This document shows positions 28,389-64,000 of a stretch of 64,000 nt of DNA, one piece after another. Below the pieces are notes generated by a model, which was given only the letters and a program-made list of their open reading frames with translations, made no database searches and had not been told where the DNA came from. The stretch is from Pristiophorus japonicus (taxonomy: Eukaryota), in assembly GCF_044704955.1 (NCBI RefSeq), contig NC_091978.1:327174001-327238000 (forward strand). Reading direction: 5' to 3'. The position numbers and the translations under genes were made by a program. Numbering within the stretch: the first letter of the stretch is position 1; each line of letters starts with the position of its first letter.

Positions 28389-28400
28389 AGTCGGCAGGAT
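28389..28400 (+). promoter_or_regulatory. Partial primer-binding site, tRNA-Ser(AGA/TGA type)
   Basis: AGTCGGCAGGAT equals the last 12 nt of TGGCGTAGTCGGCAGGAT, the complement of the vertebrate tRNA-Ser(AGA) 3' end. It lies upstream of gag. Confidence 0.65.
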
Positions 28401-28454
28401 ATCCCCAGGGGACGAGACACCGATCGTACCAGACCATCACTGAGTGGGTCGAAC

Positions 28455-29012
28455 AGGGAGCAGCATGCGGCGGCCCGCCCGGAACATCAGCAGGCCGGGG
28501 CCATTGGAGTGAGCAGCGTGCGGCGGCATACCACTGCAGGGAGCAGCGCGTGCTGCTGCAGGAGGGCGACGGCTGTGAAGCCAGGTCGCTGATTGCAGTG
28601 CGGGCTGGCACAGCAGGAAGGGCGAAGGAGCGGCAAGAGTTTATAGATGGAAGTGACCGGGGCCAAGAAGAGGCGTGAGTCTGGGGCCCAGAAGAGGTGA
28701 GAACCCAGGGCAACACGGGCCAGCCCACACTGCGATATGTGTGCACACTCGGTCGGTGCAGCACAGTTGGTCTCCAGTTCGTCTTGGGTAATCCTTGCCA
28801 CTGGACCAAGACCTAGCTCTGTCAAGCCCGTGTGGTGGCTGGTGTGCAACGGCCACCACATGTTAAAAAAATCCAAGCACTGGGATCTTCCATCCTCCAA
28901 GATGTAGTTCGGGATCTGGAATAATAGGTCCTTCATTGAAACACCTGTGAACTCATCCCTTTTTGGCGTGGAAGCAAGTCATCCTCGTTTCGAGGGACTG
29001 CCTCTGATGATG
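28455..29012 (+). mobile_element. RTE-tailed non-autonomous element (copy 2), inserted in the ERV leader
   Basis: Starts AGGGAGCAG like copy 1; ends GTGGAAGCAAGTCATCCTCGTTTCGAGGGACTGCCTCTGATGATGA. Confidence 0.75.
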
Positions 29013-29147
29013 ATTTTAAAATTACTACTCTCAAATCCGATGTGTTCCAGACATTAAGTGCAAGTCAAGCGGGATATCAGAGCAAATAAAGTAATTGTTA
29101 GCGATCGAAAACAAGTAAGTTTGGAGTAAGCATTTAGTTTGGGTAGA

Positions 29148-29850
29148 ATGTCTACTAATGCAAAGACTGACGAATGGAGTCTGGAGGGAATCGTTGGCAA
29201 GATTTTTTTACAGACAAGCGCATGAAACTAATTTTGAGGAATGAAGAAGAATGGGTGGGACCCATCAGATGAGCCCGCCAAACACAAGTTGTGGTGGGAG
29301 ACACAAACCAAATACAAAACTGACAAAGCCGGAGTTTTAATAACAAGGCAATGTCTGCGTTATCATGAAAAAACAAAACCAAAGTTAGTAGAATTGAGTC
29401 AATTGCGTAAGGAAAGAAAGTCTGTTCAGTCACTGGCATGACCCAGACCAGGAATTGAATGAGGTAATTGAAACAAAACAATCGTGCAGCCGCCCCGACA
29501 ATAAAAACAGACCTCCCTCCTATAGCGAAGTACGGGCAACTGCTCCCGAATTTGACGCATATGGAGAGGAGGTTGCAGTGGCACCAGTAGTAATTGTTGC
29601 CGGTCCATGCGGGAGAAACCTTGGAACAAGATATGAGCCTTTTACCTCCGGTGAAAAACAGACATTACTAAAGATTTGCCCACCTTAAGACCCCGACATG
29701 GCAATGCCGACTTTTGGAGACTCATCAGAGAGATGTATAACATCCAAACATGCATGAATGAGATGTTCACCAACTAGTATGAGCAAAGTGCCCCGAGATA
29801 AGGGTACAGGTTTTGGCCAGGGATTGGGCCAAGACCGGCCAGTGGGGGGT
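29148..29850 (+). pseudogene. gag: ERV gag, N-terminal part; remainder of capsid, nucleocapsid and protease deleted
   Basis: ATG at 29148 is in frame with 29241-29441 across stops. 29455-29688 contains PPSY and APVV..YEPFTSGEKQTLL. Lies directly upstream of RT. Confidence 0.6.
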
Positions 29851-29864
29851 AATGTGCCAGCCTG

Positions 29865-32346
29865 CCTGAGGCATGGGCTAGGATGAAACAGGACAGTGGT
29901 CTTGTGAGAATGGAACCCATTAAAGTCCTGGGGCCAGAACACAAAGTGCACCAACAATACCCGATATGCCCTGAGGCATGTGAAGCAGTAGCCCAGATAA
30001 TACAGGAGTTGGTGACAGAATGGATTTTGAAGGAGGTTGTAGCCAGTACCAATTCCCCTGTGTGGCCAGTAAAAAAACCAGATGGGTCACATCATCTCAC
30101 CATCGACTACACAGCACTGAATATGGTGACTCCCTGGGAACACCCTATAGTTGCTAGTCCCTCCACCATTTTTAATGGTCTTAAACCTGAGCACAAGGTC
30201 TTCACGGTCCTAGATATTGCCAATGGATTTTGGTCCATATCAATAGCCAAAGAATCACAGCCCAAATTTGCATTCAGCTTTGGAGAACGACAGTACACGT
30301 GGACAAGACTGCCACAGGGGTTCCACAATAGCCTGGCCATCTTCCACCAGACGATGATCCGAGCATTCGAAAATGTAAACCTGGCCCCATATAATTATGG
30401 TCCTACAGTACGTTGATGACTTACTCATCGCCTCTAAGAGTCCAAGGGAGCCTGGTAGTCATCTTGGAGGCCTTGATCGAGGCCGGATTTAAGGTGAGTC
30501 GCAAAAAAGCCCAAATAGGACTTGCCAAAGTACAGTACTTGGGGCACAAAATCTCACAAGGGTTCCGGGCCATGTCCAATGAGAGACGGGATGTCATTCG
30601 GGTGATGCCGCACCCAACTACTATAAAGGACATAAGGAAAGTCCCGGGCTTGTTTAACTATTGCAGAAATGTTATCCCGAATTTCGCGGCTCCAGCGGTG
30701 CCCATCCAAAAACTTGTAAAAGGCAGAAAGCCGTCCTTAGAGGCCATAGAATGGGGAACAGAGCAAGAGGAGGTGTACGTCAAGCTAAAAGAGGCTCTAA
30801 TGAGCGCGCCATGCTCGGTCTACCAAACATGGAATTGCCGTTCCACATTCACTGTGACAATGTCGGGAACTTTTACGGGGCGGGTCGTCACGCAGGATCA
30901 CAGCGACAGACACTGACCCGTAGCTTACTTTCCAACCCAGCAGTCATCAGTAGCCACCGGGCTGTCCAGATGCGTGGCAGTTCTGTAGTAAAAGCTAGTG
31001 AACTGCTAGTGATGACAGGAGCTATCATCCTGGTAGAAATGTTGAATACAGGGAAATTAAGGGCCATCTCAAACGTAAAACGGGCAAAATGGGAAGCTGT
31101 TCTATTGCCTAAAGACGAGTCTCTCAAAATAGTGCGAGGCACAAAATAGTGCAGAAGGACTTCTGGAGGAAGCGGAACCCCACAGTTTTAACGCGCTGGA
31201 ATGGGAGGACTCCCCAGGCAATATCAGTGAAACTCCACAGGAGGACCCCGATCTGACCCTATACGTGGACGGGTCTAGAAAGTGTGTAAGTGGATCACCC
31301 CATACTGGGTGGGCGGTTGTTAACGTCAATTTGGAAACTGTACTTAGCAGGGCTTTAGAAGGAGGACTGTCTGCCCAAGTGACCGAACTTACGGCCCTGA
31401 CAGAAGCTCTCAAACTAGCCGAAGGAAAAAGAGCAAATATATATATATAGACAGTCGCTATGCCTTCGGGGTAGTATATGATTATTTGACGGCTTGGGGA
31501 AGATGAGGGTTTGTCACCTCGCGCAGAGAGGCTATTATACATGAAGGAAGAATTAAACTACTGCTGCACGCCTCTACAAAACCCGCCCAAGCGGCGGTGG
31601 TGAAGGTGAAAGCTCACCAGAAAGTGATTGACGAAATAGAAAAAGAGAATGAGGCCACGGACATAGCTGCTCATGAAGCAGCTGAGTCCCTGGACCCAGT
31701 CCCAGAATCCGTTTGTGCGCTAGCAATTGGGGAGAAGGACGTGGACATTAAACAATTACACGCCAATACAGATGAGAAGGAAAAGGTAGAATGGGAGTGC
31801 CTGGGAGGAATCCTGGGTGCAGATGATGTATGCAGGCGTGATCAATGAGTCATAGCCCCCGAGTGTATTAGAAGAATGCTGATGGAACTACACTACGGCA
31901 TAGACCACCGGGAGCGCAATGCCATGATCACGAGCTTACAGAAAGAATGGAGGTGGCCAGCACTGGGATGCCAGGTGGCCAAGAACTGTCAGTTATATAT
32001 TACATGCATGCAGCACAACCCGGGAAGGGCAGTAAAGATAACGATGAGCCTCCAGCCCCGACCACGAGGTTCATGGGAAAACTTTCAGATTGACTTCACT
32101 GGGCCACTCATCACAGCACATAATGGTAAGAAATACTGCCTAGTTATAGTGGATCAGTTCACTAGGTGGGTGGAAGCATTCACCACTCGCGACTGCACCG
32201 CAACAACTGTTACCAAGATATTGGCCGAGAAAGTCTTTCCCCAGTGGGGAATACCGGTCCAGGTAGATACATGCGCATGCGTGGAGATACGTGGACAAGG
32301 ACGGTGGAGACACTGGTCACAGTTGAAGAAACTCACCAATCAATAA
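29865..32346 (+). pseudogene. pol: ERV pol: RT, tether, RNase H, integrase (integrase core partly deleted)
   Basis: RT: NSPVWPVKKPDG, TVLDIANGFWSI, YTWTRLPQGFHNS, LQYVDDLLI (about 30403). RNase H: LYVDGS..SAQVTELTALTEAL..NIYIDSRYAFGVV. Integrase: QIDFTGP..LVIVDQFTRWVEAF..WGIP. Confidence 0.92.
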
Positions 32347-32408
32347 GCAGACAACGTCAGGGCATCTGCTCTTTATGACCCACAGGTACCATGATAAGCT
32401 GCGCCAGG

Positions 32409-34346
32409 ATGCGGATAGCCCTAGTGGGAATCACGATCATGACGGTTTACTGCACCCCGCTAGCGAGGAACGGAGAGACTGTACTGCGTTCACAAAGAGC
32501 TGTGTAGGCCACCTGAAAGCAACAACAAGGCCTGTATTAGAAGGACTTGGGTGATGTCAGTTGTGATCAAGAGCAAGAGACATTGACTGTGACAATTGGC
32601 AAAACTGTGCATTTAAATTGTAGCTCCGGAATAACGGATGTCTCAGTTGTCTGGGAAACAACACTAGGGAAAGGATGGCTGGGGAGTAATACAGTGGGAA
32701 TAACTGTTATGTGGATGGATGTGCACATGGTATGCAATCAGAGAGTCGGGTGTGTGCCGGCGGACAGTGTGCAAGTACAGTGCGTGAAAAGTTACGTTCA
32801 ATGGAATGCTCTCAGTAATTGTGAACCTCACTGATCTGGGTCTGCCGGAAGAATGTAACGCCAAAGTAAGGGCACTATACAACCGCCTGCTAGATATATT
32901 ATTAAGAGAGGCAATGGACACAGATGGAGCATCACAGGCCAGGGTGAAATTAAACATTTATCGTAAGTAAAGGGGACTGGTAAATGCACGCTCTGAGAGT
33001 CTCCGGGAGACGATGCAGGGATTGTTACAACTCTACACACAATCTGCCCATGGGGTGGGGGGTGGTGGAGTGGGGGGGACAGTTGGGGAAGGTGACAACT
33101 GAACAGCTATTGAAGGGAATAACAGTCCAGAAGGGCATGCAGCTACTATCAATAAACTAATTGACAGGGAATACAAGGATAGAGTTGACGGGGTAAAACG
33201 AGATGTGTGCCATGCATACGGAGACTGGGTGGTGAGGCAGATCCGCCATAACCTGGAACAAGTCAATCAAGGAAAGGTCCCAAATTAGGTAAACAGCACA
33301 CACTAGCTTTCCCTCGCCCAGCATCCCGGAAACATAGACGCATGTACATTGAAGGGGATGACCCCTTCCTGGTAATCGTGTGTGGACTCCCATTTAACAT
33401 TGGTGGGCTGGTATTTGTGATCCCAGTGATGACCGGAACAGAAGGCCCATGAGATAAAAAACTTGGGGCTAATCCGAGGAAACAAATACCTCCGGTAACA
33501 CCCCATGGACCAGTATGCCAGTAGAATGAATGGGAGCATGCGAGGAGTCTCCCTCTCTGGTTGTCGCCGGGTAGGGAGTCTGACTATATTTCCACACCCA
33601 GTAGGAAGAGATAGCATGAACGGTTGTGGGTTCAACCGAACTGCAGGCTGTGTACTAGAATCTAGCCCAGCCTGGAGCGAGCCAACACACTCTGTATATA
33701 GGGGCAGAGGTGAGTACTGTGTGGTGACTAACCAACAGGCTTACAACTATGGGAACCTGATATGCCCCATCCCAAAACCTAACTTCTGCTTCACCTCACG
33801 GGTACCAGTTAGCATTGGCTGGGCCAGATTGATAGATGTCCACACAAGAAATGAGGTGACTCTAAGTGTAACTGATGATTTAAAGGCAGACCTGGAGTCA
33901 TAGGAGGAGGACATGGCAGCCCCAATCCCACATCTTGCGGAGGATCTAAGTGATATTAAAGATACCCTGTGGGAAAATGTGCGGCAATACCACCTTCTAG
34001 AACAAGAATTAAAAAAATTAGGAGTCAAGGTTAACCGGGACCTTCAAAAGGTCCCGTGGTATGTGTCAGCCTGGGATTGGGGAATGAATGTTAACATACA
34101 CCCTACTCTTGGATTCATATAATATCACACATATTTGAGATTGTACAGTTAATACTGGTGATAGGCTGGCTGACTACAACATGCAAGGCTTGTGCCACGT
34201 GAAAGAACCGGCTGCAAGCTAAAGCATTAGTGAATCTAACCCCAAGGCACTGGACCTCCCAAACTTTTCGGCTGATCACCAATGTGGGGACAGCAGACCC
34301 AAGACAGATAGTTAGCATAGCCAAGATCACCAAAAGGGGGGACTGA
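32409..34346 (+). pseudogene. env: ERV env resembling Mononegavirales fusion (F) glycoprotein
   Basis: In order: signal peptide MRIALVGITIMTVYC, Ig-like VTIGKTVHLNC..VVW, LPEECNAKVRALYNRLLDILL, heptad region, Cys-rich VSLSGCRRVGSLTIFP..GCGFN..GC..YCVVT, C-terminal heptad, PWYVSAWDW, TM IFEIVQLILVIGWL. Several stops and frameshifts. Confidence 0.8.
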
Positions 34347-34897
34347 AGTGGGGCAATAAGTCACACTGGACAAATCAGACATGGAATAGAGGGTTAAAGT
34401 GTGTTCGATAGAAGCAGCCTTTGCAAAACCTAAGCCAAGAAACAAAATGTACATCTGCACTGTCTTAAGGCCTCGTCAGATCCTTGATGTCTCTACAGAA
34501 GAGATAACTCAGGGATAGTTGTTTTCAAACCGACACGTCAGAAAAACTGGCACCCAGCAGAGCAAAGGTCAAAGCAGGGCAAGAGCATGGCTGCATAAAC
34601 AACCCACAAACACAGTGGGGGAAAGGTCCTAGGCATAGGCGGAATGGAAACCTTCTTCATCTTGAGTGACAAGGGGCTGTGTCCATTCAAATCAATGTAT
34701 GTCTCATGTATTGAATGTCCGGCCATTATAGGCCGAGTAAATGTATAAAAACCCGACGTGATCTTTGTTCGTAGAGAAACAGGTACGGAGAGTTCAGTGG
34801 GGACTGACTATGGCCTGTTTTCTCCCTTGCAAGTAAAATAAACTTATGTGTGTTTGATTCCTAATTCCTAGAGATTAATTATTTAATCTCCACTTCA
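34344..34897 (+). repeat. ERV 3' LTR (554 bp)
   Basis: TGAAGTGG...CCACTTCA termini, preceded by the PPT; TATAAAA near 34744 and AATAAA near 34837. Confidence 0.9.
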
Positions 34898-42652: not shown

Positions 42653-45600
42653 TGTTGTGTATGGAGAAAGAGTCAGACTGAACACTGTGAGCTCAAAGTA
42701 AAGTGTGACTTTAGTCTTTTATTGCAGGTCTCCAGAGTGCCTCTCCAACCTGTGAAGCCTCCTTAAATACCTGTGCTCCCAAGGGATTATGGGATCCCTT
42801 GGGATTCCAGGGGATGAGCCCTCTGGTGGCTGTACAGAGTAAATACAAGTCCACATATATAACAACACTCCCCCCCGCCAAAGTCAATAGTGTAACTATT
42901 TACAATGTGAGTCGATCTGGGGCCCTTCTTGCCCTGGTTGATCGTCTTGGTGTGAAAGCTGGTGTTGTTAAATCATTTGTTGGGCCCTCGCTGGGCTGCT
43001 GGGCAGCTGGCCTTGCTGGGCTGCCTGGTGTGTTGCGCCCTGCAGGGCTGCTGTGGATGATGGGTTCTGCTTCGTGGTCAACCGTGGTGCCGGTTGCCAC
43101 TGGTGTGTATGTTGGGGGATCAAAAAAGGTAGGGTCCAAGGTGGGTTGCTCAGGATAGTCCGTGAATCTGAGTTTGATTTGGTCCAAGTGTTTCCAGTGA
43201 ATGAGTCCATTTGAAAGTTTGACCCGAAACACCCTGCTCCCCACTTTGGCCACGACAGTGCCGGGAAGCCACTCGGGACCTTGTCCATAATTTTAAAAAA
43301 TACAGGATCATTGATGTCAATCTTGTGTGACACATTTGCGCCATCATGGTATGCAATTTGTTGAAGCCGCCTGCTCTCTACCTGTTCATGTAGATCAGGG
43401 TGAACTAATGAGAGCCTTGTCTTAAGTGCTCTTTTCACGAGCAGTTCAGCAGGTGGGATCCCAGTGAGTGAGTGGGGTCTCATGCAGTAGCTAAGCAGGA
43501 TTCGGGATAGGTGAGTCTGCAGTGAGCCTTCAGTTACCCTCTTCAAGCCTTGCTTGATGGTTTGCACTGCTCTCTCTGCCTGACTATTGGACGCTGGTTT
43601 AAACGGGGCAGATGTGACATGTTTGATCCCGTTACGGGTCATGAATTATTTGAACTCAGCACTAGTTCAAGAGTCCCAGAAATGACCACAGCTCTGTCAC
43701 GTTCTGTGGCCTCTGTGCGTTCTCGATTGCCTCTGTCTTCCCGTTAGTGGGCCTGATGCCATCCGCCGCAATCCTCCTTCTCAAGCACTCCACTACAGGC
43801 GCCAGGAAAATGCACTTCGAGTGTTTCAACCTGAGCCCCACGCAGTTGAGTCGACTAAGAACCTCCTCCAGGTTCTGCAGGTGCTCGACTGTGTTCCGAC
43901 CTGTGACCAAGATGTCGTCCTGGAAGACCACAGTGTGCTGGACCGACTTCAGTAAACTTTCCATGTTTCTCTGGAATATCGCCGACGCTGATCGGATTCC
44001 AAACGGGCATCTGTTATAAACAACAAGACCTTTGTGCGTGTTGATGCAGGTGAGAGCCTTCGATGATTCTTCCAGTTCCTACGTCATGTAGGCTGAAGTC
44101 AGACGTGAACGTCTTTCCTCCCGCCAGTGTTGGAAAGAGGTCATCGGCTTTTGGTAGTGGGTATTGGTCCTGCAGGGAGAAACGATTGATAGTTACTTTC
44201 TAATCGCCACAAATTCTGACGGTGCCATCTCCCTTGAGGACTAGGACAATAGGACTGGCCCACTCGCTGAACTCGATCGGTGAAAAGATGCCCTACCTTT
44301 GCAACCGGTCTAGCGCGATCTCTACCCTTTCTCTCATCATGTACGGTACTGCTCTCGCCTTGTGACAGATGGGTCGCGCCCCCAGAATTAGGTGGATCTG
44401 CACTTTTGCTCCTTGGGAAATTCCCGATGCCTGGTTCGAACAGTGAAGGAAATTTGTTTAAGACCTGAGCACACGAAGTGTCGTCAGCAGGCGATAGCGC
44501 TTGGACGCCGTCCCAGTTCCAGTGTATCTTTCCCAGCCAGCTGCTGATGAGCAGCGTGGGACCTGTAATGTCCTTACACACGACTATAAATTCACATGAG
44601 GCACATTCTGCAGACAAGATCACTCTGTGACCTGAACCTTTATTCACAAGAAGTGATGACCCTGCATGGGACCTCCTTTTATATACCTGGATGACCAGGT
44701 GAGAAGTGTCTCCCACAAATTCACCCTCTGTGGTCAAGGTGTGCATTTCTTAGGTGTATACAGTATGCAGTGTAGTTATGAAGGTTACAGTTATATGAAG
44801 GTTACATACATGACATCACCTCCACCCCAAAGATTAAGTCTTTCAGGCTGTCGACGCTCTCTTGTGGGGCGCTGCAGTTGGGGCTCTGGTTGTTGAGCCT
44901 TGGCATGCGTCTCTGTCACCTGTAGTGATTCCGGCTTGTCCGGGCTTGCCGCAGGGACTGTGCATGCTGCTGAATGTTCTTGTTGCTCGTTCATTGGCGG
45001 TGGTGTGGGCAACATCTCATGATCTTCCTCAGGTTCCTTAGTGTCCATGCTGAACCTTTTTTTTACTTGGTCCAGATGCTTGCGGCATATCTGTCCATTG
45101 TTAAGTCTCACCACTATGACCCTATTTCCCTCTTTGCCAATGACAGTACCCTCGAGCCACTTGGGCCCCAAAGCGTGATTAAGAACAAATACAGGGTCAT
45201 CGATTTCTATACATCTACCCTTTGAGTTACGGTCATGGCACTCATTTTGGGACTGGCGTTTGCCCTCAACAATGTCTGTCAGGATAGGATGAATGAGGGA
45301 CAGCCGAGTTTTAAGTGTACGTTTCATGAGTAGTTCCACGGGCGGGACTCCCATGAGCGACTGCAGTCGGGACCCATAGGCCAGCAGGAGGCGCGATAGG
45401 CGGCATTGAAGGGAGGGTCCTTGAATCCAGAGCATGCCCTGTTTTATGATTTGGGCCGCATGTTCCGTCTGGCCATTGGAAGCCGGCTTGAACAGTGCCG
45501 TCCTGACATGTTTGATGCCATTACCCGACATGAACTCCCGGAATTCATAGCTAGTGAAACATGGGTCGTTGTCGCTAACCAGGATGTCTGGCAAGCCATT

Positions 45601-48600
45601 GGTCGCAAAGACCGCACGCAGACTCTCCACAGTGGTGGATGTCGTGCACGAATTCAATATGATGCACTCGATCCATTTCGAGTACGCATCAACAACAATG
45701 AGGAACATCTTTCCCATGAACGGGCCCGCGTAGTCTACGTGAATACGTGACCATGGCCTGGTGGGCCAGGGCCACGGGCTGAGTGGGGCCTCCCTGGGGG
45801 CATTGCCGAGCTGGGCACAGTACGTGCACCTGCGAACACAGTGTTCCAGGTCTGAGTCAATTCCCGGCCACCATACATGTGACCGGGCAATGGCTTTCAT
45901 TAGCACCATGCCTGGGTGCTCGCTGTGGAGTTCCCTGATGAATGTTTCCCTTCCCTTCTGGGCCATGACTACCCAGCTGCCCCATAGTAGGCAGTCGGCT
46001 TGGATGGAGAGCTCATCCATCCGTCTGTGAAACGGTCTGACCTCCTCAGGGCATGCTCCGTGTGCGGGCGCGCAATCCCCAGTCAAGACACATTTCTTAA
46101 TCAAGGATAGGAGGGGATCTCTGTTGCTCCAGATTTTGATCTGCCGGGCTGTGATGGGGGAGCCTGCGCTGTCAAAGGCTTCAATGGCCATGACCATCTC
46201 AGCGCTTTGCTCCGCTGCCCCCTCAGTGGTGGCCAATGGAAGCCTGCTGAGCGCGTTAGCACAATTTTCGGTGCCTGGCCGGTGCTGAATGGTGTAGTCA
46301 TACTCAGCCAGCATGAGAGCCCATCGCTGTATGCGAACTGATGTATTGGCATTGACAGCTTTGCTCTCTGACAACAGGAATGTTAATGGCTTGTAGTCCA
46401 TTTCTAACTCGAACCTTCTGCCAAAAAGGTACTGGTGCATCTTTTTCACCCCATAGACACATGCGAGTGCTTCCTTTTCAACCATCCCATATCCCCGTTC
46501 TGCCTGGGAGAGCGACCTGGAGGCATAAGCCACAGCTTTGAGTTGGCCCTCATCATTACTCTGCTGCAACACGCACCCAACCCCATAGGATGGTGCATCA
46601 CATGTCAAAAACAATTTCTTACAGGGGTTGTACAGAGTCAACAGCCTATTAGAACAAAGCAGGTTCTGCGCCTGATTGAAAGCCCGTTCCTGACATTCCC
46701 CCCAAAACCAATCGCAACCCTTACGCAGGAGCACATGTAGCGACTCCAACAATGTGCTTAAATTCGGCAGAAAGTTCCCAAAATAGTTCAAGAGTCCCAG
46801 AAATGAACGCAACTCCGACGTGTTGCCGGGCCTGGGCGCACGACGAATCGCCTCCATTTTGGATTCGGTAGGCCGGATCCCATCTGCAGCAACCCTCCTG
46901 CCCAAAACCTCGACCTCTGGGGCCGGACTTCTTTAGTCGCGGCCTACCTGGTCCAGTCGGCGTAGCACCTCCTCCAGGTTGTGGAGGTGTTCCTCGGTGT
47001 CTCGACCCATGATAAGGTTGTCTTCCTGAAATACGATTGTTCCAGGGATGGATTTGAGCAGGCTTTCCATGTTCCTTTGAAAGATAGCAGCCGCTGATCG
47101 AATGCCAAATGGACACTTGTTGTAGACAAACAGCCCCTTGTGCATGGTGATGGTGGTCAGTAGCTTGGATTCTTCGGCCAGTTCCTGGGTCATGTAGGCT
47201 GAAGTGAGGTCCAACTTGGTGAACAGCTTGCCACCTGCCAGCATGGCAAAAAGATCCTCCGCTCTCGGAAACGGGTATTGGTCTTGTAGTGACACTCTGT
47301 TGATAGTGGCCTTGTAGTCGCCACAGATCCTGACCAAGCCATCCGTTCTTAGGACAGGGATGATGGGGCTTGCCCAGTCACTGAATTAAATGGGTGAAAT
47401 TATGCCCTCTCTTAGCAACCTGTCCAACTCACTCTCAATTTTCTCCCGCATCACATACGGCACAGCTCTGGCTTTGTGGTGCACTGGTCTGGCGTCCGGG
47501 GTGATGCGTATCACTACTTTGGTACCTTTGAAAGTCCCGACACCAGATTGAAATAGTGACTCAAATTTCTGTAGGACCTGTGAGCATGAACTTCGCTCCA
47601 CAGATGAAATGGCGTGCACATGCCCCCCATTTCCAGTGCATCTCAGCTAGCCAGCTCCTCCCCAAAAGCGCGGGACCGTTTCCGGGACAATCCAGAGTGG
47701 CAGCTGGTTCTCTGATCCATTATGTATGACCACCAACATTGCACTGCCTAGCACTGGGATGATCTCTTTGGTGTACGTCCTTAGTTGCGTGTCAATGCGT
47801 TCTAGTTTGGGTCTGCTAGCTCTGAGTGGCCATAGTTTCTCGAATTGTTGGACACTCATAAGTGACTGGCTGGTCCCTATGTCCAGCTCCATGCATACCG
47901 GGATGCCGTTTAATAGGACTTTCATCATCATAGGTGGCGTTTTGGTATATGAGCTGTGGATGTTTGCCACATGAACCCGCTGAACTTCAGCATCCATTTC
48001 TTTGTCCCAAGCATCAACCTGCCTTGCATACCCCTCTTCTGGTTCATCTGACTCGTAAATTAGCCTCCCTGTGGGCTTCCTGCACATTCTGGCTAAATGT
48101 CCACTGAAGTTACAATTTCTACAGATAAATTGTTAAAACCGACAGGTTTTTGCAGCATGTCTGCCCCCCGCACCTCTAGCATGAGCCGAGATCGGTGTGA
48201 ACAAAAGGGTTGTTATCAGGCATTCCTCTCTGATTGTCTCTTTGATTACTCTTGAGCACTCTGTTAATGGGTGTCAATGGCCCCATCCCGGGACGCATTG
48301 TCCACCGTGATAGCGTAAATGTCTGTTCAACCTGCCATTGTCTCTGTTGAGGACCCACTCTAGAGTTGCTGCCTGGGTGGTGTCGAATTGCCCTTGCCTG
48401 CCTGCGGGGTTCTGAGTCGCGTTTACAATGTTAACTCCCTGATCCATCACCACATTGGAAGCAGAGTTGCGTGCGTATATTATCTTGGTTTCCTCCTCCC
48501 CCACCATGAAGATCTGAGCCATCAACGCCGCTGCTTCCAAGGTCAAGTCCTTGGTCTCAATTAGCTTTCTGAAAATCCTGGTATAACCAATGCCCTCAAT

Positions 48601-57832: not shown

Positions 57833-59949
57833 ACTGTCGGAGGTCATTGGGCTATGCGCATGTGTGTGCGGCCCAGGTATAAAAGGCCAGCCATCTTGTG
57901 ATGTAATTACTTTGGGCCCTAATAAAGTAGAGCCAGGTTTGTACCTGTTCGGAGTTTACAGTATTCAGTCTATTGAGTTATTGCATACACAACATTTGGT
58001 GATGAGGTAACAAGAATCTTTGCATGCAAAAATGAGAACAATTGGAATTCTGGAATGATTTGTGGAGGTAGAAGATTGGGCAGACTTTGTAGCCCGCTTG
58101 AACCAGTACTTCGTGGCCAATAAAATGGAGAAAGAGGCAGACGCGGTTCTGCGCGGGCGGTCCTCCTCACGGTTTGCGGTCCGAAAATCTATGGACTCAT
58201 AAAGAATCTCCTCTCACCCTTAAATCCAATGTACAACGACTATGAAACATTGTGTGCTCTGGTATGTGACCATCTCAAACCAGATGAAGGCATCATCATC
58301 TCAAGATATCGATTGTATACGCACGTTCGTTCTGAGGGCCAAGATGTATCGGAATTCGTTGCCGACCTAAGACATCGAGCTGGACCGTGTAAATTCGAAA
58401 CTGCGTTGGCAGATATGCTGCGGGGCTTCTTTGTAATCGGCATCAACCATGAGGTGATCCTGCGTAAGCTACTGGCGGTGGAGACACTGGATTTGAGCAA
58501 GGCCATCACAATTGCCCAATCATGCATGATGATAGACAAAAGCATAAAGCAGATATCATTGAAAAATCAGAACTCGGCAAGTACTGTGAACAAGATAGTA
58601 TTGTCGATTGGCAGAGTTACATATGGCAGGGCCTACCCGACTGCATACGCAAAACTTGTGGCTGCTCAAAGTCCGCCAATGGGAATGAATCCGATATCAC
58701 CGTGTTGGCATTGTGGGGGAAATCATCGGTATCATCAGTGTCGGTTTATACAGTATATTTGTAAAGGCTGTTCGAGAGTGGGGCATCTCCAACGCATATG
58801 TCCGCAACTGAGCAAGCGTGCTGTGACACACCAGGTGGAGGATGATGACCAGTCTAGCGTGGATCCGGATATGCAATTCGAGATACCAGAGAAGGAAGTA
58901 TATGGACTGTATTCGTTCCTAACAAAGAGCCAACCGATAACGATTAATGTAAAACTTAATGGTGAGCCGGTATCGATGGAATTGGACACGGGTGCGAGTC
59001 AATCAATAATGAGCCAGAGGACATTCGACAGGCTGTGGGATACTAAGGCTGTGAGGCCTAAGCTGAGTCCAGTCGATGCCAAGTTGCATACATACATTAA
59101 AGAAATCATAATGGTGATTGGCAGTGCAGTAATCAAGGTGTCGTATGATGGTGTGATTCAGGATTTACTGCTATGGATTGTTCCAGGCAATGATCCAACG
59201 CTGTTCGGCAGGAACTGGTTAGAAAAAATCAAATGGAACTGGAACGAGATCAAAGCATTGTCGTCTTCGAAGGATACTCCATGTGCTCAAGTGCTGAGCA
59301 ATTTCCCCTCGCTGTATGAACTAGGCATCGGCAATTTCATGGGAGCCAAGGTGCAGATTCACGTGGATTCAGATGCAAGACCTGTCCATCATAAAGCTTG
59401 GGTAGTTCCAGACATGAAGAGGAAGAAGGTTGAAATCGAACTGGATAGACTCCAGCATGAAGGGATCATATCAGCGGTTGAATTTAACGAGAGGGCCAGC
59501 CCCATTGTTCCCATGTTGAAAAGTGATGGCACTGTCAGGATTTGTGGAGACTACAAGGTTACAATCAACCAAGTTTCGAAACAGGATCAATACCTGTTAC
59601 CAAAGGCTGATGACCTGTTTGCAATGCTAGCCAGGGGGAAGTCATTCACAAAACTGGATCTGATGTTGGCCTACATGACACAAGAGCTGGTCGACATGTC
59701 GAATAAACTTACGTGCATCAACACTCATAATGGACTATTTATCTACAACAGGTGCCCTTTTGGAATTCGCTCAGCTGCAGCCATATTTCAGAGGAACATG
59801 GAGAGTCTACGAAGTCCATCCCCAGAACTGTCGTGTTCCAAGATGACATATTAATCACAGGTCATGACTCTGCCAAACATCTGAACAACCTGGAAGAGGT
59901 TCTATATCGTCTGGACAAAGTGGGACACAGACTGAAATGCTTGAAGTGC

Positions 59950-62129
59950 TAAAGTAGACTGGGAATACAGACTAAACAGTGGCACAATCGAAGAACAGTG
60001 GAGGACTTTTAAGGAGCTCTTTCATAGTGCTCAACAAAAATATATTCCAGTGAAAAAGAAGGGCGGTAAGAGAAGGGATAACCAGCCGTGGATAACCAAG
60101 GAAATAAAGGAGAGTATCAAATTAAAAACCAATGTGTATAAGGTGGCCAAGGTTAGTGGGAAACTAGAAGATTGGGAAAATTTTAAACGACAGCAAAGAA
60201 TGACTAAGAAAGCAATAAAGAAAGGAAAGATAGATTACGAAAGTAAACTTGCGTAAAACATAAAAACAGATAGTAAAAGCTTTTATCGATATATAAAACG
60301 GAAAAGAGTGACTAAAGTAAATGTTGGTCCCTGAGAAGATGAGAAGGGGGATTTCATAATGGGAAATGTGGAAATGGCTGAGACCTTAAACAATTATTTT
60401 GCTTCGGTCTTCACAGTGGAAGACACAAAAACCATGCCAAAAATTGCTGGTCACGGGAATGTGGGAAGGGAGGACCTTGAGACAATCATATCACTAGGGG
60501 GTAGTGCTGGACAGGCTAATGGATCTCAAGGTAGACATGTCCCCTGGTCCTGATGTAATGCGTCCCAGGGTATTAAAAGAGATGGCGGAAGTTATAGCAG
60601 ATGCATTCATTATAATCTACCAAAATACTCTGGACTCTGGGGAGGTACCATCGGATTGGAAAGCAGCTAATGTAACGCCTCTGTTTAAAAAAGGGGACAG
60701 ACAAAAGGCAGGTAACTATAGGCCGGTTAGTTTAACATCTGTAGTGGGGGAAATGCTTGAAGCTATCATTAAGGAAGAAATAGCAGGACATCTAGAAAGG
60801 AATAGTGCAATCAAGCAGACGCAACATGGATTCATGAAGGGGAAATCATATTTAACTAATTTACTGAAATTCTTTGAGGATATAATGCGCATGGTGGATA
60901 GAGGTGTACCGATGGATGTGGTGTATTTAGATTTCCAAAAGGCATTCGATAAGGTGCCACACAAAAGGTTACTTCAGAAGATAAAGGTACGCGGAGTCAG
61001 AGGAAATGTATTAGCGTGGATCGAGAATTGGCTGGCTAACAGAAAGCAGAGAGTTGGGATAAATGGGTCCTTTTCGGGTTGAAAAGTGGTGGTTAGTGGT
61101 GTGCCACAGGGATCGGTGCTGGGACCACAACTGTTTAGAATATACATAGATGACCTGGAAGAGGGGACAGAGTGTAGTGTAACAAAATTTGCAGACAACA
61201 CAAAGATTAGTGGGAAAGCAGGTTGTGCAGAGGACACAGAGAGGCTGCAAAGAGATTTAGATAGGTTAAGTGAATGGGCTAAGGTTTGGCAGATGGAATA
61301 CAATGTCGGAAAATGTGAGGTCATTCAACTTGGGAAAAAAAACAGTAAAAGGGAATATTATTTGAATGGGGAGAAATTACAACATGCTGCGGTGCAGAGG
61401 GACCTGGGGGTCCTTGTGCATGAATCCCAAAAAGTTAGTTTGCAGGTGCAGCAGGTAATCAGGAAGGCGAATGGAATGTTGGCCTTCATTGCGAGAGGGA
61501 TGGAGTACAAAAGCAGGGAGGTCCTGCTGCAACTGTATAGGGTATTGGTGAGGCCGCACCTGGAGTACTGCATGCAGTTTTGGTCACCTTACTTAAGGAA
61601 GGATATACTAGCTTTGGAGGGGGTACAGAGACGATTCACTCAGCTGATTCCAGAGATGAGGGGGTTACCTTATGATGATAGATTGAGTAGACTGGGTCTT
61701 TACTCCTTGGAGTTCAGAAGGATGAGGGGTGATCTGATAGAAACATTTAAAATAATGAAAGGGATAGACAAGATAGAGGCAGAGAGGTTGTTTCCACTGG
61801 TCGGGGAGACTAGAACTAGGGGGCACAGCCTCAAAATACAGAGGAGCCAATTTAAAACTGAGTTGAGAAGGAATTTCTTCTCCCAGAGGGTTATGAATCT
61901 GTGGAATTCTCTGCCCAGGGAAGCAGTTGAGGCTAGCTCATTGAATATATTCAAATCACAGATTGATAGATTTTTAACCAATAAGGGAATTAAGGGTTAT
62001 GGGGAGCGGGCGGGTAAGTGGAGCTGAGCCCACGGCCAGATCAGCCATGATCTTGTTGAGTGGCGGAGCAGGCTCGAGCGGCTAGATGGCCTACTCCTGT
62101 TCCTAATTCTTATGTTCTTATGTTCTTAT
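59950..62129 (+). mobile_element. 5'-truncated CR1 ((TTCTTATG)n tail) inside the Gypsy RT
   Basis: ORF pieces 60050-62027; the Gypsy frame (KC|VF) resumes at 62130. Confidence 0.92.
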
Positions 62130-64000
62130 GTCTTCATAGCACCAGAAGTCGAATTCCTTGGTATCAGGCCTACAAACTTGAAAACCAAGGCCATCAAAAA
62201 TCCACCCAAGCCTTAGAATGTGACGGAGCTGCGTTCGTTCCTTGTTGGTGTACTCAACTACTTCGGTAATTTCTTACCTAGATTGAGCACCTTATTAAAA
62301 CCACTGCACAACTGGGTTTGGGGTGCGTCTCAAGATAGAGCGTTTGAAAAAGCTACTAATCTACTTTGCTCTAACAAGCTGCTGGTACATTATGATCCGT
62401 GTAAGCATCTAGTATTGGCCTGTGATTCTTCGTCATATGGAGTGGGTGCGTGCTCCAAAAAGCTAATGAGTCAGGCAAATTACAACCTGTCGCGTATGCT
62501 TCAAAAAGTTTGTCAAAGGCGGAAAGAGTCTACAGCATGGTAGAGAAAGAAGCATTATCCTGTGTGTATGGGATTAAAAAGATGCATCAGTACCTGTTTG
62601 GTCTTCAGTTTAAACTGGAAATAGATTACAAGCCACTCATTTCATTGTTTTTGGAAAACAAAGGTATCAATACCAGTGCATCGTCCCGCATCTAGAGGTG
62701 GGCGCTGACATTATCTGCCTATGATTATGTAATTCGCCATACGCCTGGCACTGAAAATTGTGCCGATGCATTGAGCCGTCTGTCGTTGCCCACACCGGAG
62801 GTGGAAACGCCATAACCGGCAGACCTACTGTTAGTCATGGATGCTTTTGAAAGTGAAGGAACCCTGACACGGTTCAACAAGTTAAGACCTGGCTCAGCCA
62901 GGACCCGATATTATCGGTTGTGAAACATTGTATCCTTAGTGATGATTGGTCTGCCATACCCAAGTATATTTGTGAGGATACCAAACCTTACATCTGTCGC
63001 AAAGACGAACTATCCATTCAATCAGATTGTATACTGTGGGGCAATTGTGTTGTTATGTCCAAGAAAGGCAGAGAGAAATTTGTGCAAGATCTACATAGCA
63101 CACATCCCGGTATTGTCATGATGAAAGCCATTGCCAGATCTCATGTATGGTGGCCTGGAATTGACTCTGATCTGGAATCATGTGTGCATCAGTGCAACAC
63201 TTGCATGCAGCTTAGTAAAGCACCAGCAGAATTGCCGCTGAGTCTGTGGTCGTGGCGATCTAAACCATGGTCCAGGATCCACATCGACTTTGCAGGTCCC
63301 TTCCTGGGAAAGATGTTCTTAGTTGTGCTGGATGCTTATTCCAAGTAGATAGAGTGTACAATCATGTCATCCAGCACATCCACAGCTACGATTGAGAGCC
63401 TTCGTGTCATGTTTGTTACGCATGGTCTGCCATTCAAACCCGCATCCAATGGATAAGCAGAGCTTGTGGTCTAAACCATCAAGCGGAGTATGAAACCTGT
63501 AACTCACGGTTCACTGCAAACTCGCTTGTCATGCATATTGCTTAGTTACAGGACAAGACCCCATATGCTTACCGGGATCTCCCCTGCTGAACTATTGATG
63601 AAGAGAGGTCTCAAGACCAGGCTCTCTCTTGTCCAGCCTGACTTGAATAATTGTGTTTAATACAGACATCAAAGTCAGCAAGGGTATCATGATCCTGTGT
63701 ATGTACTGAATTATGGTCAAGGTCCCAAATGGATCGCCGGTACTGTTACGGCCAAGTAGGGTAACAGAGTGTTTATTGTTAAACTCAAGAATGGGCAGAC
63801 ATGCAGGAAACATGTCGATCAGATAAGGCTGCGGCACACGGATGAACCAGAACAATCTGAGGAAGACACAACCAACCTACCCTCAATCATCAGAGGACTC
63901 CGCTGTCATCAATGAATCTGAACTTTCAATCAGTAACATGGTCAATGAATCTGGACTTTCAATCCCTGATGTGGTCATTGCCACTCCCATCAGATTGGCT

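Follow-up and report, generated by a model that had tools for sequence, protein, structure and literature searches.

A stretch of 64,000 nt from the genome of the shark Pristiophorus japonicus, referred to here as the window, carries at positions 32391–34230 a decayed endogenous retroviral env. This is probably the dead env of an old shark endogenous retrovirus whose polymerase is likely SnRV-like and whose Env is predicted to be an F-type (class Ib) fusogen. The layout of the gene, its breaks, the family to which it belongs and the fold match of a monomer predicted for a sister family together carry this reading. It touches on the origin of retroviral envelopes: a canonical polymerase, neither foamy nor lokiretroviral, that is paired with an F-type Env would represent a third basal lineage.

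The provirus and its broken env

On the forward strand, the provirus runs from a gag remnant through reverse transcriptase (RT), tether, RNase H, integrase and env to a 3′ LTR (Table 1). The 5′ leader, which resumes at 29013 after a repeat insertion, was compared with the leader that lies behind the 5′ LTR of a sister copy, L056; no second LTR copy that could serve as the 5′ LTR is present in the 64,000-nt window. The RT/tether region is 66% identical to sister Pol over 181 aa, a tblastn comparison with the protease part of a sister copy gave no match, and the 3′ part of the integrase has lost ~500 nt, leaving a gap at ~32268 relative to sister copies. In the sister copies, the PBS is complementary to tRNA-Ser(AGA). 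As separate observations on the same theme, a tandem array of ~1.95 kb period containing the tRNA-Ser 3′ end occurs at G000:C23 (~18.57–18.59 Mb and 20.35–20.47 Mb); there are 1,022 genome-wide matches, and tRNA-Ser(AGA) was confirmed at three loci only, on contigs other than that of the array. The window also holds two further LTR-retrotransposon-type pol regions, at 43659–47508 (−) and 58124–63615 (+), which are ~25% identical to the provirus Pol and likely Ty3/gypsy.

Table 1. Features of the provirus, in window coordinates
Feature	Positions	Strand	Evidence or remark
PBS remnant (tRNA-Ser type) and 5′ leader	28389..28443	+	93% over 55 nt to the L056 leader
Unrelated repeat DNA within leader	28444..29012	.	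matches repeats elsewhere in the window
Truncated, decayed gag	29148..29800	+	tblastn to sister Gag, E 1e-5, 29241–29435
Reverse transcriptase (YVDD at 30409) and tether, frameshifted	29853..31140	+	Pfam RVT_1 E 1.8e-13, RT_RNaseH_2
RNase H	31145..31700	+	Pfam RNase_H E 1.9e-5 and 4.4e-6, two pieces
Integrase zinc-binding and core domains	31850..32340	+	Pfam rve E 5.7e-7, Integrase_H2C2
env start and predicted signal peptide	32391..32447	+	ATG at 32391; hydropathy 1.6 over 19 aa
N-terminal env domain, family-specific	32448..32801	+	conserved among 8 copies; three stops
F2-like part: strand, Cys 32854, helix	32806..32960	+	aligns to modelled strand E28-37 and helix H49-75
Furin-type cleavage motif, stop codon inside	32962..32973	+	aligns with polybasic site
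Junction of 66-nt in-frame deletion (fusion peptide lost)	32974..32990	+	comparison with sister copies
Heptad repeat A, central helix, domain III strands	32991..33447	+	frameshifts and stops present
Cys-rich beta head (domains I/II of F fold)	33448..33860	+	profile match, probability 100; fold matches
Heptad repeat B, Trp-rich membrane-proximal segment, TM helix, short tail	33861..34230	+	
Polypurine tract	34332..34343	+	sequence
3′ LTR, TG...CA, 8-nt terminal inverted repeat	34344..34897	+	matches both LTRs of sister copies

An initial annotation of this DNA had started env at 32792. The ATG lies ~400 nt earlier and is followed by a signal-peptide-like stretch, which is also found at the env start of sister copies, and by an N-terminal domain of ~120 residues. 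In the window copy this domain has no Pfam or PDB match, nor do Pfam or PDB lend support to an Ig fold, and it is dissimilar to the N-terminus of a young family described below. At ~32802, 5′ of the F2-like part, a deletion of 240–280 nt relative to sister copies takes out a Thr/Pro-rich linker.

The motifs that had been read from the window are where they were said to be: VIVNLTD...LLDILL with its Cys at 32854, RVK at 32941 and the heptad region INKLID...VC. The Cys-rich block, the C-terminal heptad and the Trp-rich segment are likewise present, as are LVFVIPV, read in the second frame, and the TM helix, which occupies 34119–34175 in a shifted frame (mean hydropathy 1.93). Two details need amending, however. 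The F2-like spacing is C-x7-Y rather than C-x6-Y, and RVK was rejected as the furin site, since sister copies align their R-x-K-R-type site to the basic motif at 32962–32973, a comparison that also drew on public shark proteins. The window contains a single loose form of the F2-like motif, against none in 60 shuffles, a test that is post hoc because the motif was drawn from the window sequence itself. The suspected deletion of the fusion peptide is borne out by a 66-nt in-frame loss, placed at ~32983 relative to sister copies, and CX6CC and an ISD-like motif are indeed absent from the three window env frames and from one open sister env. In the Cys-rich beta head, the cysteines align with those of foamy Env. 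Over the five env pieces read there are 11 stops, some of them in out-of-frame stretches, and several frameshifts besides; this copy is unable to make protein, a dead fossil, and no sign of a host function was seen.

Relatives and predicted fold of the envelope

Searched against 1.84 billion proteins, a profile built from 15 natural copies picked out 58. Ten of these were looked up; the eight with names come from sharks and frogs. An env search that yielded 1,222 candidates matched proteins of two sharks only, one of these public proteins being 92% identical to the young family in the window's genome, and metagenome and viral contigs contained no relatives of the env. Full-length or long Env relatives occur in four frog genera (P0194, P0206, P0227 and P0201), and one frog Env cluster comprises 16 near-identical members within one species. 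In the database proteins P0198, P0208 and P0218, an F-box, cadherin or caspase domain is fused to env pieces of this family, fusions that are likely gene-model artefacts.

Structure was predicted not for the window copy itself, but for the env ectodomain of a sister family that is 37–42% identical to it. From an alignment of 61 sequences—51 database or related proteins and 10 earlier rows, with a bacterial match, the fusion products and some short pieces left out—AlphaFold produced a model with pLDDT 74 and pTM 0.55, compared with pLDDT 37 for an earlier model from 15 sequences. The window's two main env pieces align to the family profile with probabilities of 99.8 and 100, so that the F-type fold presumably carries over to the window env.

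The initial annotation had suggested an AlphaFold trimer and Foldseek as a structural check. With a monomer, the comparison came out in its favor: the sister-family model best matches paramyxo-/pneumovirus F. In the PDB, Foldseek placed hPIV3 F first (E 1.7e-11, TM 0.48–0.50), followed by RSV, Langya and NDV F, and among the matches listed, to rank 50, all are paramyxo/pneumovirus F entries. VIA-align, across 48,161 chains, returned F proteins as its top 10 (best Z 10.6, rmsd 17.0, 360 aligned; on a second look at the F match, Z 12.0, rmsd 5.9, 326 aligned), with foamy Env at ranks 12–13 (Z 7.8, rmsd 4.8, 259 aligned). The predicted monomer aligns with F from residue 10 to 399 and beyond, across the cleavage site, and both subunits are modelled as contributing to the domain I–III head; the order of signal peptide, furin site, fusion peptide (taken from sister copies), HRA, HRB and TM is that of an F protein. 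Because the model matches hPIV3, RSV and henipavirus F, and then foamy Env, the env is predicted to encode a class Ib (F-type) fusogen. The class Ib group as defined by Fernandez et al. (PMC11468914) covers the matches of this Env.

Predicted viral structures broaden the picture. In BFVD the highest places go to glycoproteins of a fish filovirus and a myriapod virus, to WEHV1 Env (E 3.5e-11) and to baculovirus F; paramyxovirus F ranks below baculovirus F, walleye retrovirus Env and the filovirus glycoprotein. Lower matches to the sister model (mc05f4cac65be) include WDSV Env (E 8e-8) and feline foamy Env (E 2e-5). SnRV Env is absent among the 50 BFVD matches listed, and there is no orthoretroviral Env among the fold matches listed, an absence that is not in itself an exclusion. 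As an observation in its own right, the matches of the predicted WEHV1 and WDSV Envs to the F-type model suggest a fold for the unclassified walleye Envs, which a 2023 review (PMC9967133, in part) describes as distinct and without gamma-type hallmarks.

At the sequence level the likeness is far fainter. Identity of the family Env to F is 8–14%, and the proposed Pfam check, Fusion_gly (PF00523), failed to match the window pieces, L003, P0001/2, the sister envs or the 61 aligned members; a PF00523 search of the genome, run without a working control, also gave no match. Baculo_F and TLV_coat have no match in the window or among the 61 aligned relatives, one further relative matching Baculo_F at E 0.001, below the cut-off. 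Best hits to TLV_coat- or GP41-type Envs had been named in the initial annotation as the outcome that would speak against an F-type Env; beside the zero for TLV_coat, GP41 is matched in one of the 61 members, at E 0.041. Searches of the PDB with a single sequence or a 15-row profile found nothing, whereas for the 61-row profile, independently of the fold model, the best match is foamy virus Env, at E 0.014 over ~200 positions and with the cysteines aligned. None of 428 candidates was homologous when the window's Cys-rich piece was compared with longer proteins. Atlas language-model features for P0002 score 0.89 on Baculo_F clusters, 0.84 on both Fusion_gly and foamy Env and 0.83 on CoV S2, all below 0.9 and thus leads only. 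The paramyxovirus F blueprint that had been proposed for this Env therefore stands at the level of fold, in the sister-family model, and falls at the level of Pfam sequence comparison.

By analogy with class Ib biology, the intact Env would have acted as a trimer. A signal peptide would be followed by a variable N-terminal domain, likely to bind the receptor, and by the Thr/Pro linker, with the F2-like strand and helix remaining part of the fusion machine. A furin cut at R-x-K-R would free the fusion peptide, and the refolding of heptads A and B around the Cys-rich beta head may then produce a six-helix bundle and fuse the membranes.

Polymerase placement and competing origins

Sister Pol, over RT and tether, reaches 281 bits against MLV, compared with 192 against foamy and 128 against Ty3; the sister RNase H has XMRV as its best match (121 bits), and the RT fragment of the window itself reaches 87 bits against foamy and 81 against MLV. 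Judged by these scores rather than by a tree, the MLV alignment runs through the tether and the Ty3 alignment ends before it. Foamy Gag is not known to have zinc knuckles, and spumaretroviruses express Pol apart from Gag. A sister copy departs from both: its Gag has two CCHC knuckles and shares a single frame with pro, with a stop between them. The integrase end of this copy is MLVIN_C-like.

An RT tree was built with 34 rows chosen from the 120 matches listed; these rows include no SnRV, foamy, class III or Loki sequence, and their gamma/epsilon labels rest on one named gammaretrovirus, host names and motifs. Here, the window RT groups with shark relatives (support 97/96), in a 13-row group that is split from 21 gamma/epsilon-like rows at 100/99. 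When a gypsy outgroup is included, the class I-like rows come together as a clade, with support of 100, to the exclusion of the window RT. By sequence, then, the polymerase falls outside gamma/epsilon. It is likely SnRV-like, a likeness of motifs judged by eye, SnRV itself being outside the tree: the RT motifs agree with SnRV and disagree with those of 24 Loki RTs (PMC7947760 Dataset S2, in part), whose PLSRWPM- and CPFGY-type segments are absent from the window-family RT. SnRV-like ERVs (PMC4977317) similarly lie outside gamma/epsilon and have fish, coelacanth and shark relatives, with one lineage of the clade reported in elephant shark.

Could the family nevertheless be a lokiretrovirus, new to cartilaginous fish, in which case its F-like Env would already have been described? 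Lokiretroviruses are LTR-gag-pol-env elements of aquatic vertebrates whose Pol carries a tether plus RNase H and whose F-like Env has a signal peptide, R-x-K-R, fusion peptide, coiled coil, TM and PF00523 similarity (Wang & Han 2021, PMC7947760, in the portions available). The family Env is built along the same lines, with similarity to Mononegavirales F at the fold level, though not the Pfam level. Its RT motifs, tether and RNase H, in contrast, are of canonical-retrovirus type, which makes this reading highly improbable: the Loki RT segments are missing, the Loki tether is reported to be nearer to Ty3 RNase H than to MLV whereas the family tether aligns with MLV and not Ty3, and the Loki RNase H groups with foamy viruses whereas that of the family is best on XMRV. 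Those portions of the paper also report no lokiretrovirus from cartilaginous fish. A basal epsilon-like or foamy-like retrovirus that is not SnRV-like, its F-type Env inherited from a walleye- or foamy-type Env, would accommodate the BFVD models of WEHV1, WDSV and feline foamy Env among the matches, the foamy Env as best PDB profile match, and the single gag-pro frame and MLVIN_C-like integrase end of a sister copy. We nonetheless regard it as unlikely, given the 100/99 split of the RT from epsilon/gamma-like rows and a Gag whose zinc knuckles set it apart from that of foamy viruses. The shark Env has its variable domain at the N-terminus, ahead of the F2-like core. Foamy Env (PMC11468914, in part; PDB 8rm0, 8rm1), itself a retroviral class Ib fusogen, differs in that its receptor-binding domain sits between subunits and in having two membrane segments.

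Direct capture of the env from the F gene of a fish paramyxo- or pneumovirus would account for the best solved-structure matches and for an Env core that is compact in size like F. Paramyxo- and pneumovirus F (PF00523; 1ztm, 3rki, 8tvg, 3maw) indeed shares with the shark Env a three-domain head, predicted in the latter, an F2 helix with its Cys, a furin site, a fusion peptide, HRA/HRB and TM. However, F structures are plentiful in the PDB, many further class Ib proteins in BFVD score equally well or better, and PF00523 gives no match at the sequence level, where, as in features, the closer relatives are foamy Env and Baculo_F-type Envs. The shark Env differs from F in being retrovirus-encoded and in having an additional N-terminal domain, where F relies on a separate attachment protein. 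Nothing points to a paramyxovirus donor specifically, and capture of this kind seems quite improbable. The shared ancestry with negative-strand RNA virus fusogens that had been inferred for this Env is thus sustained in the broad class Ib sense and not in a paramyxovirus-specific one. Another F-type Env on an LTR element is that of errantiviruses and baculoviruses (PF12259; PMC13524379, in part), which provide the best Atlas lead and, through baculovirus F, BFVD matches; errantiviruses, however, are invertebrate Ty3/gypsy elements, and the Pol of the window family is retroviral.

Families, ages and the origin of retroviral envelopes

In the 5.9-Gb host genome, a DNA search found at least 49 matches, most of them 80–93% identical (40 of 506 candidates scored). 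Eight copies of the window subfamily have two LTR pieces, with K2P distances of 0.06–0.12 in six and 0.03 in two; the subfamily is therefore likely old, tens of millions of years, on an estimate that applies no shark-specific rate. Further env families emerged from a search at the protein level, in which 113 of 21,800 candidates were scored. In a group at 41–42% identity, 48 of 54 matches among the candidates scored are stop-free over ~358 residues, and LTR distances in three fetched members are 0.000–0.009. The intact env frames for which a search had been proposed thus exist in young copies, but open frames with near-identical LTRs mark young insertions and are not evidence of host co-option.

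The fusion-peptide segment is missing in 4 of 16 scorable copies (20 loci), namely the window, L006, L016 and L019, which share the 66-nt loss; the other 12 carry 45–67 extra nt. A single inherited deletion was rejected, as the four copies form no clade (AU p 0.002, 3 changes). Since, in addition, the junction is flanked by short near-repeats, the deletion probably arose more than once or was passed between copies by recombination.

Between families, the N-terminal env domain is unrelated and the F core is retained (window 32448–32801 versus L047, L049–L051 and P0188). Some relatives have an Ig-like domain at this place, according to the UniRef name of P0188 and a weak V-set match in P0210. 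Because it differs between families and is Ig-like in some relatives, the N-terminal domain is likely the receptor-binding part. By analogy, this binding head would likely be N-terminal as in coronavirus spike, unlike the inserted position in foamy Env.

F-type Envs have been published for lokiretroviruses (PMC7947760), foamy viruses (PMC11468914) and invertebrate errantiviruses, vertebrate ERVs being deferred to a later report (PMC13524379 and preprint). In the literature searched, we found none for SnRV-like or shark ERVs; supplements and figure labels beyond that search may list some. The available part of Viro3D names Metaviridae and not SnRV-like or shark ERVs, that of PMC11521997 describes gamma-type ectodomains in sharks, and the 2026 eLife paper (PMC13524379), likewise in part, holds that canonical vertebrate retroviruses generally have a retroviral-type Env. 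Wang & Han (PMC7947760, in part) did not decide between four scenarios for how retroviral Env arose. One tentative reading, to which we give somewhat less than even weight, is that the F-type fusogen was the ancestral retroviral Env and that gamma-/lenti-type SU/TM replaced it later. Foamy viruses, lokiretroviruses, the SnRV-like shark lineage, the frog Env relatives and walleye epsilonretroviruses would then be survivors, and the shark families would have exchanged N-terminal binding heads on one F core. With an F-type Env on an SnRV-like polymerase, such an order of events becomes testable by comparing env and pol trees.

Families of three ages also record repeated loss of gag-pol with env retained (L046 3388–9714, L048, L049 and L051; in the window subfamily, L052–L069). 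In L046 and L048 the LTRs are near-identical, gag is just 30–41 codons, pol is absent and env frames are present, and older copies have common deletions in RT, tether and RNase H.
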